A stretch of 36,560 nt of DNA, taken from positions 1 to 36,560 of IMG/VR virus record IMGVR_UViG_2724679539_000003. One strand, written 5' to 3'. The stretch's first letter is position 1, and every line of letters starts with the position of its first letter. Below, one piece after another: positions 35,090 through 36,560 of the stretch. The position numbers were made by a program, and so were the translations under genes. This DNA is from a virus. Taxonomy: Duplodnaviria; Heunggongvirae; Uroviricota; Caudoviricetes. The notes beneath the pieces are model-generated. The model was given only the letters and a program-made list of their open reading frames with translations. It ran no database searches and was not told the origin of the DNA.

Positions 35090-35479
35090 TCAGGCGGCTG
35101 CACCCGCCGTTTTCTCGTACTTACTGATAGTGATTTCGACCTTCCCTTCCGGGATAACCGGTCCCCACTCCACTAGCATTCTTTTCACCTGACTGTCGTC
35201 TTCCCACACACCCGCGTGGGTCATGGCGTCAAACAGCGCCTTGTTATAGTTGTCCAGATCGCGGATCCGGTTATCCGGAGGAAACAACACGATCTCCACT
35301 GAAGCAGGTGCCGACGTTGGTTTCGGCAGACGACGTAACTGCTCAACTATTGCTGCGCACGCCGCGCTCTGGAATTTTCGCCCCGCCTCGCTTATCAGGC
35401 TCTTACCTGCAAACGCCCCTTTGTTGGGGTGTCGCCAGTACGTGTTCACGCTGGGCGGAAAAGGCAGAATCAGCTTCAT
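35090..35479 (-). CDS. rusA: RusA Holliday junction resolvase
   Basis: 129 aa; RusA-family pattern (ILPFPPSVNTYWRH...RIRDLDNYNKALFDAMTHAGVWEDDSQV); ATGA overlap with the upstream gene. Confidence 0.88.
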   Translation of the reverse strand: MKLILPFPPSVNTYWRHPNKGAFAGKSLISEAGRKFQSAACAAIVEQLRRLPKPTSAPASVEIVLFPPDNRIRDLDNYNKALFDAMTHAGVWEDDSQVKRMLVEWGPVIPEGKVEITISKYEKTAGAAA

Positions 35480-35802
35480 ACTTTCATGCCCCTCTTATGT
35501 AACCAGTGGGTTGCACGCAGCCTGGCGTTTTCCTCACCGGCAAGCAGTGCGCGGATAATCCCGACCGCCTCGCTGTCGTCGTCCTTGACCGCGGTATGAA
35601 GCGTTATCCCCCGGGCCACACCACGCTTTATCGTGATGACGCCTTTTTTCTCCAGTGCGCGAAGATGCTCCACCGCTGCATTCACCGAACGGTATCCCAG
35701 CATGGTTGCCACCTCCTGATTGGTTGGCGGGAAGCCACGTTCTTTCTGATAAGAAATCAGCATATCCAGCACCTGCTGCTGGCATTGAGTTAACGTCGTC
35801 AT
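35476..35802 (-). CDS. LexA N-terminal DNA-binding-domain-like protein (no peptidase domain)
   Basis: ORF 35476-35835; likely start ATG at 35802 (MTTLTQCQQQVLDMLISYQKERGFPPTNQEVATMLGYRSVNAAVEHLRALEKKGVI), closely resembling the LexA winged-helix domain; only about 108 aa. Confidence 0.65.
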   Translation of the reverse strand: MTTLTQCQQQVLDMLISYQKERGFPPTNQEVATMLGYRSVNAAVEHLRALEKKGVITIKRGVARGITLHTAVKDDDSEAVGIIRALLAGEENARLRATHWLHKRGMKV

Positions 35803-36290
35803 TACGCCCCCACGTAATTCCCTGACAGATACCACTCATCACTCGATACAGCGCGCTTGCTGCTTTTCCGTAAACACTGCTCACGACGCGCCAGAAAATT
35901 GTTTCGTTCTGGCTGGGAGTGGCTTTCACGGAATGCCGCCATCCACACCGTTGCAGCACGACGGTATAAGCCCCTTGACTCCAGTTCTTCAGCCTGGCGG
36001 GTCAGGCACAAAATCACCCGGGGATCGTTAGTGCCGACATAGAAATTGCGCACAGGTCTGGTTTCACGAACTGGTTGTGGTTCCGGCTCCTGCGCTCTCT
36101 CAGTCAGGCGCGGGAAATGTCTGCGTGTATCTCCTTCACAACGGTGAGCCACACGCCCACTCTGACGTAACTTGCTTGCTGACTGCAGAACGCGCTGCCG
36201 TGAGTAACCTGCAAAAGCATCCGCAATGTCTCCGGAAGTACACCCCGGATGGGCTTCAATGAATTTCTGAACTTCATTCAAAAGACTCAT
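35802..36290 (-). CDS. PerC/ANR-like putative transcriptional regulator
   Basis: ORF 35802-36296 (GTG); likely start ATG at 36290; C-terminal AEELESRGLYRRAATVWMAAF resembles the PerC/Pch motif; assignment tentative. Confidence 0.45.
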   Translation of the reverse strand: MSLLNEVQKFIEAHPGCTSGDIADAFAGYSRQRVLQSASKLRQSGRVAHRCEGDTRRHFPRLTERAQEPEPQPVRETRPVRNFYVGTNDPRVILCLTRQAEELESRGLYRRAATVWMAAFRESHSQPERNNFLARREQCLRKSSKRAVSSDEWYLSGNYVGA

Positions 36291-36292
36291 AA

Positions 36293-36560
36293 TCACCCCC
36301 TGAATCCTGCCGGGATCTGGCTGTAGTCCACGTTGTCGTAACTGGCTTTGAAGTACGGGTCTTCACGTTTTTCTGTGTGCGTGCTGACGGACGGCGATAA
36401 GCGCAGGGAAAGCTCATCCCATTTTTCCCGCAACTTCGACGGGCTGAGCACGTTACGGCACCAGAACGGATCGCGGCTGACGCGGCTGTACATCTCGCAG
36501 ATTTGTTTGTGAGTACGACCATCCTGCACACACATCAGGCGAATTTCGTTTGCCCAGGCT
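36293..36560 (-). CDS. Replication protein C-terminus with DnaT-like domain (5-prime partial, runs off the window)
   Basis: C-terminal ...DNVDYSQIPAGFRG resembles the DnaT C-terminus (...SQIPPGFRG); the reading frame is open to the window edge. Confidence 0.55.
   Translation of the reverse strand, partial: AWANEIRLMCVQDGRTHKQICEMYSRVSRDPFWCRNVLSPSKLREKWDELSLRLSPSVSTHTEKREDPYFKASYDNVDYSQIPAGFRG

Follow-up and report, generated by a model that had tools for sequence, protein, structure and literature searches.

[quoted passage not shown] The base-contact residues of LexA are taken here as given in previous studies (PMC3091678, PMC13416735), and four of these five contact positions are different in LexA proteins with another binding motif (PMC13416735). 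For PerC-type proteins, Pch displaces H-NS at LEE1 (PMC4764244), and PerC and the group 1 Pch proteins PchA-C are the only ones for which activation of ler, by H-NS displacement, has been demonstrated (PMC4764244, PMC6265319). The ler-activating Pch proteins are the group 1 members of about 90-100 aa, groups 2 and 3 (PchD, PchE) are inactive on ler, and the group 1 pch genes are upregulated with SOS and prophage induction (PMC6265319). YfdN was deleted from K-12 as a precaution only, and no action on ler has been demonstrated for it (PMC5931665). Our literature search found no functional study of YfdN or of a LexA-like protein from an E. coli phage.

The window analysed here is a stretch of 36,560 nucleotides from a virus of the Caudoviricetes, and its last part carries a lexA-like gene next to a yfdN-type gene. 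Both reading frames that the initial annotation placed at 35476-36296 are present there on the minus strand, and the domain identities of the two encoded proteins are almost certain. The features of the locus are as follows.

35090..35479, minus strand: rusA Holliday-junction resolvase gene, next downstream in the operon (Pfam RusA, E 3.5e-15)
35476..35479, minus strand: ATGA overlap of the lexA-like stop and the rusA start, read from the sequence
35476..35802, minus strand: lexA-like gene (108 aa), ATG at 35802 and stop at 35476 (PHROG 362, E 1.8e-59)
35494..35583, minus strand: predicted C-terminal helical hairpin of the LexA-like protein, aa 74-103, family-specific (AF2)
35593..35802, minus strand: LexA-type winged helix-turn-helix, aa 1-70 (AF2/Foldseek)
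35647-35688, minus strand: recognition helix, aa 39-52, within the LexA-type winged helix
35800..35804, minus strand: TAATG stop/start overlap of yfdN and the lexA-like gene, read from the sequence
35802..36296, minus strand: yfdN-type PerC-family gene (open reading frame call, Pfam PerC, PHROG 1324, E 9e-78)
35844..36026, minus strand: predicted PerC core of YfdN, a three-helix bundle, aa 89-149 (AF2)
36108..36290, minus strand: predicted N-terminal winged helix of YfdN, aa 1-61, not found in PerC/Pch (AF2)
36293..36560, minus strand: 3' end of an O-like replication gene (PHROG 391 'replication initiation O-like', E 4e-35)

Synteny indicates that the prophage is lambdoid and of the SfII/SfV/mEp460 type, and that both genes sit in its rightward, delayed-early operon ('nin-like'). 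The gene order on one strand in the relatives compared, SfII, SfV, mEp460 and one RefSeq prophage, is cI, cro, cII-like, O-like, yfdN, (dam), lexA-like, rusA, kilA-N, DUF968 and Q, and this shared order bears out the 'early operon' of the initial annotation. The two genes are translationally coupled to the O-like gene upstream and to rusA downstream. The TGA of the O-like gene lies 2 nt ahead of the yfdN ATG, the stop and start codons overlap at the next two junctions, and the gap between the lexA-like gene and rusA is 0-3 nt in all 70 related loci. The O-like gene extends past the end of the window, so its own promoter lies outside the view. Within 35090-36560, a crude consensus search detected no sigma-70-like promoter or terminator on the coding strand; the annotators of SfV proposed a promoter inside orf40 (yfdN). 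An Rfam search found no RNA family in 30500-36560. Both genes are probably expressed through the early operon, i.e., during induction or infection and not in quiescent lysogeny, and they should be silent in the lysogen because they are coupled within an early operon, lie downstream of cro in the relatives and have no promoter of their own that we could find.

The gene pair is not new, since it is already annotated under the same product names in thousands of genomes, with a match in 2703 of the 5426 complete E. coli genomes. The earlier observation is thus a correct re-discovery of two annotated accessory genes. The window DNA is 97-98% identical to annotated phages, and the annotated orthologues include SfV orf42/orf40, SfII gp44/gp42, mEp460 gp46/gp44, YfdN of the K-12 prophage CPS-53 and the RefSeq LexA and PerC family regulators, which have 94-98% protein identity to the window proteins and occupy the same slot between the O-like gene and rusA. 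Unlike the window, most relatives carry a dam methylase cassette between the two genes. The TAATG junction is the site of this 654-bp cassette, and in the DNA alignment the sequence ...GGGGGCGTAATGA precedes dam in SfV and the lexA-like gene in the window and in TUM9812. The 75 related loci comprise 47 with yfdN-dam-lexA, 18 with yfdN-lexA (the window type), 5 with yfdN-dam, 3 with dam only, 1 with lexA only and 1 with dam-lexA. The yfdN and lexA-like genes are therefore not a fixed pair, as each occurs without the other. Both cdtI and mEp390 have the same type of replication gene and no yfdN, and some relatives have rusA and no lexA-like gene. Since natural relatives do without one gene or the other, the phage module does not depend on either of them. 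Both genes are under purifying selection, with dN/dS of 0.13-0.35 versus relatives. The pair is also found in Stx2a/Stx2c-converting phages, and cdt-converting phages carry the same module. The best long match to the window has 91% identity at 95% coverage.

The 108-aa protein is a LexA winged helix without the autoprotease domain, as initially proposed, and the profile search, the pairwise search and the predicted fold agree on this point. It matches Pfam LexA_DNA_bind (PF01726) with E 2.9e-19 and 69 bits versus a cut-off of 23.7, over profile positions 1-65 of 65, and a phmmer search of the PDB returned E. coli LexA at E ~1e-15. The AF2 model superposes on the N-terminal domain of LexA (1lea, 3jso) with an rmsd of 1.1-1.3 Å, the lower value being that to 3jso, and 51% identity in Foldseek. 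Against the full-length LexA equivalog TIGR00498, the protein scores 70.5 bits versus a cut-off of 110.95, and only model positions 1-91 of 203 are aligned. The S24 peptidase domain, with its Ser119/Lys156 dyad and dimer interface, is absent from the protein, which stops at residue 108. A helical hairpin of ~35 aa is predicted in the place of this autoprotease and dimerization domain (helices 74-87 and 93-102, pLDDT ~88), and its hydrophobic pattern is kept in homologues down to ~40% identity. A fold search with the AF2 model gave no PDB match for the hairpin, which we infer to be a dimerization or partner-binding element. In the phmmer alignment, 'LLAGEE' of the LexA-like protein faces 'VAAGEP' of LexA, which contains the Ala84-Gly85 site. 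We rejected this segment as a remnant of the cleavage site, as it sits in the turn of a confidently predicted hairpin and its Ala-Gly pair is not conserved, being swapped in homologues for NE, VG, GG, RK, DD and others. The absence of S24 and the position of the unconserved 'LLAGEE' in a hairpin turn indicate that the protein is not cleavable, a proposal of the initial annotation that is well supported.

The DNA-contacting surface of LexA is largely retained in the phage protein. Four of the five base-contact residues (S39, N41, A42 and E45) are kept, and the recognition helix differs from that of E. coli LexA by the replacements of E44 and P40, both by valine. In homologues down to 40% identity, S39 never varies and N41 hardly does, A42 and E45 are retained in most members, and conservation in the family is highest at these four residues. 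Position 44 is never glutamate across the family, and R28 of LexA is replaced by asparagine. No SOS box stands out from chance in the window, where the best PSSM score is 11.7 versus a mean shuffle maximum of 10.7, and the exact and one-mismatch search for CTGT-N8-ACAG was also at chance level (17 one-mismatch matches versus 12 ± 3.5 expected). Across related viral contigs, represented by 80 rusA-anchored IMG/VR loci, the occurrence of SOS boxes follows the cI type or a methyltransferase gene and shows no association with the presence of the lexA-like gene. In this phage group, canonical SOS boxes lie inside the SfII/mEp460-type cI genes (TACTGTATATAAAAACAGTA) and next to or at the methyltransferase gene of the late region (TACTGTAAAAATAAACAGTG). 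The four retained contacts favor binding of the LexA-like protein to LexA-type operators, and the loss of E44, the box-free window and the unlinked boxes of the relatives speak against it. Such binding to SOS-type boxes would be plausible, although we regard it as somewhat improbable, and an SOS decoy would likewise be a plausible idea.

The neighboring protein is a PerC-family member, in line with the initial annotation, which had called it PerC-like. The gene starts either at ATG 36290, giving 162 aa, or at GTG 36296, giving the 164 aa of the RefSeq entry, and stops at 35802; its G+C content is ~55%. Residues 98-152 match Pfam PerC (PF06069) with E 7.7e-10 and 39.3 bits versus a cut-off of 22.6, and residues 98-153 align in BLASTP with residues 6-61 of authentic EPEC PerC from pMAR2 with 32% identity over 56 aa (E 1e-7). 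The PerC core motif A..LE.+G.YRRAA..W is present, and the protein is 96-98% identical to the RefSeq 'PerC family transcriptional regulator (yfdN)'. A tblastn search of plasmids with YfdN did not reach the EPEC perC gene. With the ANR family (NF033650), residues 96-142 reach 22.5 bits versus a cut-off of 32 (E 7.4e-5), which is a resemblance only. The predicted architecture consists of a winged helix, a disordered linker and the three-helix PerC core. In the AF2 model, the N-terminal domain comprises helices 3-13, 19-25 and 31-44 and a beta hairpin at 47-60 (pLDDT 84-92), and the core comprises helices 90-105, 109-122 and 126-149 (pLDDT 87-94). Foldseek relates the N-terminal domain to winged helices of the ArsR/SmtB/MarR/BlaI type (rmsd ~2 Å over ~60 aa), with weak E values of 0.04-0.2, and this modeled domain could be a protein-binding instead of a DNA-binding module. 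A fold search with the PerC core gave no match, and a sequence search found no solved structure for YfdN or PerC. The C-terminal tail 'WYLSGNYVGA' is conserved. This conservation may lie at the DNA level, because the ribosome-binding site and the start of the following gene fall within the tail, and it may not be a mark of protein function.

Taken as a whole, the reading that these are two independent early-operon accessory genes, one for a LexA-type regulator and one for a Pch-like YfdN, has about an even chance of being right. Both proteins would be produced only after induction or infection. The LexA-like protein would be insensitive to RecA, would dimerize through its hairpin and would target palindromes of the CTGT type, which may be true SOS boxes or sequences close to them. 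From this timing, RecA insensitivity and binding preference would follow its role as a phage-made LexA-type transcription factor that is active once the host LexA has been destroyed. A more specific form is unlikely, namely that the 108-aa protein mimics LexA, is proof against RecA and re-occupies SOS boxes during lytic growth after the loss of host LexA. Such a mimic would silence SOS-controlled rivals or costs, such as colicins, error-prone repair and the antirepressors that LexA controls in co-resident prophages, and would also close the SOS boxes in cI genes of the SfII/mEp460 type and at the methyltransferase gene of the late region. For YfdN, the action would be that of the characterized Pch proteins, which bind DNA and loosen the nucleoprotein complexes of H-NS, and the extra winged helix of YfdN would supply the targeting; this Pch-like anti-H-NS action is conceivable yet doubtful. 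The phage itself has a block of 28-36% G+C at 31400-32900, a candidate for an AT-rich, H-NS-bound locus at which YfdN would act in this way.

The proposal that the two genes rewire the lysogen, with an uncleavable LexA-like protein competing for host SOS boxes or serving as a decoy there and with YfdN switching on host virulence regulons such as ler, now appears quite improbable. It draws on the retention of four of the five LexA contacts, the 51% identity to host LexA, the PerC score of YfdN above the family threshold, the activation of LEE1 by PerC and group 1 Pch (PMC4764244, PMC6265319) and the presence of the pair in Stx2a/Stx2c-converting phages. Against it, the genes lie in an early operon, after cro in the relatives, with overlapping stop and start codons and no detected promoter. 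A constitutive uncleavable LexA mimic would furthermore block the SOS response, which probably induces this very prophage because the cI of its relatives is an S24-type repressor. The LEE is probably missing from most of the ~2700 carrier genomes, which also counts against this proposal. PchD and PchE are inactive on ler, and YfdN has never been shown to act on it (PMC5931665). The initial interpretation is partly supported: the domain calls and the uncleavable nature of the LexA-like protein stand, and the rewiring of the host is its weakest part, as the genes belong to an early operon without a detected promoter.

It is also rather unlikely that the LexA-like protein has lost SOS-box recognition and, from a private operator in the phage genome, activates or represses a specific phage promoter that times middle or late events. 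Truncated GIL01 gp6 does bind its own palindrome and turn on the late promoter P3 (PMC6182141). In the present family, glutamate never occurs at position 44 and R28 is changed, and the absence of SOS boxes from the window, like the boxes in relatives that are unlinked to the lexA-like gene, is consistent with a private operator. However, four of the five contacts are the same as in E. coli LexA and form the family's most conserved part, where gp6 uses K38 instead; the Q antiterminator already covers late transcription in these phages, and no candidate conserved palindrome was identified. A role of both proteins as accessories of DNA metabolism, in which YfdN partners the O-like initiator and the LexA-like winged helix targets the RusA or DUF968-HNH nucleases, is very unlikely. 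The arrangement of the genes would fit this role, as yfdN overlaps or abuts the replication gene in all six yfdN-bearing annotated loci that were inspected, even where protein identity is 30-45%, the lexA-like gene always adjoins rusA, and one database protein, P0278, fuses a LexA-like winged helix to a DUF968 HNH domain. But neither protein is required by its neighbor, because cdtI and mEp390 keep the replication gene without yfdN and others keep rusA without the lexA-like gene, and these relatives missing one gene argue against both partnerships. P0278 is weak evidence and probably a deletion product, because deletions in decaying prophages often fuse adjacent genes, as in YfdN-RusA and Dam-LexA-like.

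If the early-expressed LexA-type regulator does bind SOS boxes, a very common prophage module of E. coli and Shigella would encode an uncleavable SOS repressor and produce it at the very time when the host has lost its own. This would be relevant to competition between prophages, the induction dynamics of toxin phages and antibiotic-induced mutagenesis. The mimic reading, if true, would concern prophages in roughly half of the complete E. coli genomes, including Stx2a/Stx2c-converting phages. If the protein is gp6-like instead, it would represent a second, independent capture and retooling of the host LexA DNA-binding domain by a phage.

Compared with known systems, YfdN shares with PerC (EPEC pEAF) and Pch (EHEC prophages) the core motif and a Pfam PerC score above threshold, and yfdN is prophage-borne like pch. 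EPEC PerC is a single domain of 89 aa, whereas YfdN, with 162 aa, an added winged helix and a disordered linker, falls outside the small single-domain form (~90-100 aa) of PerC/Pch. The LexA-like protein shares with E. coli LexA the N-terminal winged helix-turn-helix and the contacts S39, N41, A42 and E45; LexA has in addition the S24 domain with Ser119/Lys156, the Ala84-Gly85 site and E44, in place of which the phage protein has Val44 and the hairpin. With GIL01 gp6 it shares being phage-encoded, consisting essentially of a LexA DNA-binding domain, belonging to an early operon (here judged by synteny) and not being cleavable (PMC6182141). The two differ in that gp6 belongs to a tectivirus of the Gram-positive Bacillus and has no C-terminal hairpin as described (PMC6182141), whereas the window protein has one. 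In addition, gp6 uses K38, binds its own palindrome GaCACAnnTGTGaC and activates a late promoter (PMC6182141), whereas the contacts of E. coli LexA are retained in the window protein, and phages of the window type have a Q antiterminator for their late genes, unlike the gp6-driven late promoter of GIL01. GIL01 gp6 is the closest characterized analogue of the LexA-like protein, and it is one that evolved an operator of its own.

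The PerC-family gene yfdN and the LexA-like gene are predicted to form a single tightly coupled transcription and translation unit with an O-like replication gene and rusA, given the stop/start junctions read from the sequence and the lack of promoter-like or terminator-like sites in a consensus scan of the coding strand at 35090-36560. The features are as follows:

36293-36295, minus strand: TGA of the O-like replication gene, 2 bases ahead of the yfdN ATG
36290 (ATG, 162 aa) or 36296 (GTG, 164 aa) to the stop at 35802, minus strand: yfdN
35800-35804, minus strand: TAATG, the yfdN TAA overlapping the lexA-like ATG
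35802 (ATG) to 35476 (stop), minus strand: lexA-like gene, ORF of 108 aa
35476-35479, minus strand: ATGA, the lexA-like TGA overlapping the rusA ATG

The ATG at 36290 is preceded by GGGGGTGA, and the RefSeq length of YfdN (164 aa) corresponds to the GTG start at 36296. There was no Rfam match across 30500-36560. Annotated relatives carry, on one strand, cI (S24-type), cro, a cII-like gene, a small ORF, the O-like gene, yfdN, dam, lexA-like, rusA, kilA-N, DUF968-HNH and Q, an order that would place the pair in the delayed-early, nin-like section of the rightward operon. The initial annotation was correct in its observation of the two genes, and both are already known. Over 1.56 kb, the region shares 97-98% identity with phages SfII, SfV, SfIV, mEp460 and cdtI and with several Stx2a/Stx2c-converting phages. 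Of 5426 complete E. coli genomes, 2703 contain it, and their annotations name the two genes 'PerC family transcriptional regulator (yfdN)' and 'LexA family transcriptional regulator/protein'.

The further proposal that both proteins rewire host regulation from the prophage is doubtful, because the operon lies downstream of cro in relatives, presumably under cI repression, and no separate promoter for the two genes was detected. Additionally, an uncleavable LexA mimic made constitutively would work against the SOS signal on which induction through an S24-type cI depends. Expression of the two genes upon induction fits the reported increase of group 1 pch expression with SOS and prophage induction (PMC6265319).

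Comparison of loci indicates that yfdN and the lexA-like gene are frequent neighbours, yet independent, dispensable cassettes, since architectures are mixed and relatives missing either gene occur.

Gene content upstream of rusA in RusA-anchored IMG/VR loci (80 sampled; the 75 extending 2.5 kb or more upstream of rusA classified)
yfdN-dam-lexA: 47 of 75 loci
yfdN-lexA (the window's type): 18 of 75 loci
yfdN-dam: 5 of 75 loci
dam only: 3 of 75 loci
lexA only: 1 of 75 loci
dam-lexA: 1 of 75 loci

Phages cdtI and mEp390 have the LexA-like gene without yfdN, a Salmonella plasmid-prophage has yfdN without the LexA-like gene, and an Enterobacter element retains the pair with identities as low as 33% and 50%. 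Both genes are under purifying selection (dN/dS 0.13-0.35). The window lacks the 654-bp dam methylase cassette found between them in most relatives, and the absence falls precisely at the conserved TAATG(A) junction (window 35800-35804 compared with SfII, SfV and the related locus L001). The junction ...GGGGGCGTAATGA is identical whether dam or the lexA-like gene comes next, which marks it as a putative module boundary and suggests cassette exchange there. Chimeric database proteins also derive from the module's neighbouring genes, namely YfdN-RusA (P0151/P0152/P0160), Dam-LexA-like (P0025/P0092/P0098), LexA-like winged helix-DUF968 HNH (P0278) and YfdN N-terminus-LexA-like (P0238). In-frame deletion in decaying prophages is the most likely origin of these chimeras; the divergent P0278 (55% identity) could be a genuine fusion.

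Other features of the window are:

940-4212, plus strand: inverse-autotransporter/invasin-like gene in the flank, 1090 aa
5346-6173, minus strand: PhzF-family gene in the flank
6270-6827, plus strand: short phage-integrase-family ORF in the flank, 185 aa, probably truncated
7339-8172, minus strand: HNH protein, 277 aa, full-length match to the PADLOC model for type IV methyl-directed restriction enzymes (E 1e-200)
8274-8864, minus strand: serine recombinase/invertase (Resolvase + HTH_7)
31284-32898, plus strand: two genes in an AT-rich block (28-36% G+C), located between Q and the holin gene

The HNH protein, near the prophage end, looks McrA-like. The invertase adjoins small ORFs in opposite orientations (8855-10369), and together they look like a Pin/Gin-type tail-fibre inversion switch. 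The two-gene block lacks Pfam domains and hits the PADLOC models for PDC-M53, a candidate defence system (A, E 2e-32; B, E 2e-54); the block is oriented opposite to the phage late genes, and Q-driven late transcription would need to read through it antisense.

The adjacent protein does carry the proposed PerC-like motif. YfdN scores above the Pfam PerC threshold (E 7.7e-10, residues 98-152), matches PHROG 1324, and over residues 98-153 aligns with residues 6-61 of EPEC PerC, taken from the authentic perC gene of pMAR2 (32% identity, E 1e-7), with the common core LE..G.YRRAA..W. In the AlphaFold2 model, residues 1-60 fold as an N-terminal winged helix and residues 90-149 as a three-helix bundle, with the linker between them (63-84) and the tail disordered, and the winged helix bears only a generic resemblance to ArsR/SmtB/MarR/BlaI domains. 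EPEC PerC has just 89 aa compared with 162 in YfdN, so YfdN amounts to a PerC core extended by a winged helix. Pch and PerC are small proteins in which no DNA-binding motif is recognisable; they associate with AT-rich DNA that is bound by H-NS, and they lift silencing at LEE1 (PMC4764244), an effect limited among Pch proteins to group 1, PchD and PchE being inactive (PMC6265319). YfdN has been called 'the K12 unique PerC homologue' and deleted as a precaution, with no assay made (PMC5931665); its overexpression is listed in a glycogen screen (PMC2853380), and a UTI89 fragment with a yfdN copy was recovered in a filamentation screen that pinned the cause to no gene (PMC6206680). Judged by analogy with Pch and PerC, the most likely role of YfdN would be that of a nucleoid-modulating factor acting in lytic growth, to which the winged helix would add targeting.

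The LexA-like protein is a LexA winged helix without the autoprotease domain, as initially proposed. It covers the entire Pfam LexA_DNA_bind profile (E 2.9e-19), matches PHROG 362 and, among PDB sequences, E. coli LexA (E ~1e-15, residues 2-70, extending to 90), and falls short of the full-length LexA equivalog (70.5 vs 110.95 bits), aligning with model positions 1-91 of 203. The AlphaFold2 model (pLDDT 82) has a LexA-type winged helix-turn-helix (helices 6-22, 28-35, 40-52; strands 56-58, 66-68), followed by a hinge of low confidence (71-74) and then by a helical hairpin predicted with confidence (74-87, 93-102). In Foldseek the N-terminal domain superposes on E. coli LexA (1lea, 3jso; rmsd 1.1-1.3 A, 51% identity), and the hairpin has no match. 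An exhaustive HMMER search recovered a family of ~105-135-aa proteins with this winged-helix-plus-hairpin layout, down to ~40% identity. The reported DNA contacts of E. coli LexA are Ser39, Asn41, Ala42, Glu44 and Glu45 (PMC3091678, PMC13416735), and the LexA-like protein has S39, N41, A42, V44 and E45. Among the homologues S39 never changes and N41 hardly ever, A42 and E45 are retained in most, and position 44 is never Glu; cyanobacterial LexAs, unlike E. coli LexA at four of the five positions, bind a different motif (PMC13416735). The hairpin's hydrophobic pattern is kept, and the 'AG' aligned with the LexA cleavage site varies. The initial reading of the protein as uncleavable holds. From these features we infer a RecA-insensitive protein that would recognise CTGT-like half-sites, probably as a dimer joined through the hairpin. 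P0251, P0252 and about 10 other database proteins (~140-220 aa) contain a tandem pair of LexA-type winged helices and lack a protease domain; these may be single-chain 'dimers', an alternative answer to the lost LexA dimerisation domain.

Relatives carry SOS boxes. A canonical one, TACTGTATATAAAAACAGTA or TACTGTATGTAAAAACAGTA, falls within the coding sequence of the cI-like repressor around codon 70, in the HTH-S24 linker, in SfII (L002 9339-9358), mEp460 (L009 2546-2565), Salmonella pCFSAN022626 (L004 39-58) and 31 IMG/VR loci among L011-L090. The box occurs in 31 of 37 SfII/mEp460-type cI genes vs 0 of 38 of the SfV/ymfK type; the immunity region belonging to the window itself falls past 36560. 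Because GAGGAT..GTG follows in frame, an SOS-controlled internal start yielding the repressor C-terminal domain alone is conceivable. In many relatives a DNA methyltransferase gene of ~1053 bp separates Q from the holin gene, and its first codons overlap a strong SOS box, TACTGTAAAAATAAACAGTG, with a PSSM score of 22 (SfV, L008 10907-10926; mEp460, L009 11597-11616; related loci L010 11972-11991 and L001 2865-2884); the insert of the window at this position is a different one. In Klebsiella phage ST846-OXA48phi9.1 (L007 1-234, 694-969) a distant LexA-like gene (40% identity) is two genes away from a phage dinI homologue, and an SOS box, TACTGTTTTTTTGTACAGTA (3994-4013), is located upstream of two divergent genes in the interval from Q to the holin gene.

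The most interesting possibility still standing, that the LexA-like protein is a phage-made uncleavable SOS repressor, we consider unlikely. Binding to an operator of its own is nearly as likely as binding to SOS boxes, since the window contains no SOS box above chance, and the canonical boxes of relatives track cI type and the methyltransferase gene, not the LexA-like gene. The own-operator reading also has a precedent in GIL01 gp6, a truncated LexA homologue that binds its own palindrome and activates the late promoter (PMC6182141), the sole characterised analogue of the LexA-like protein found in the literature.
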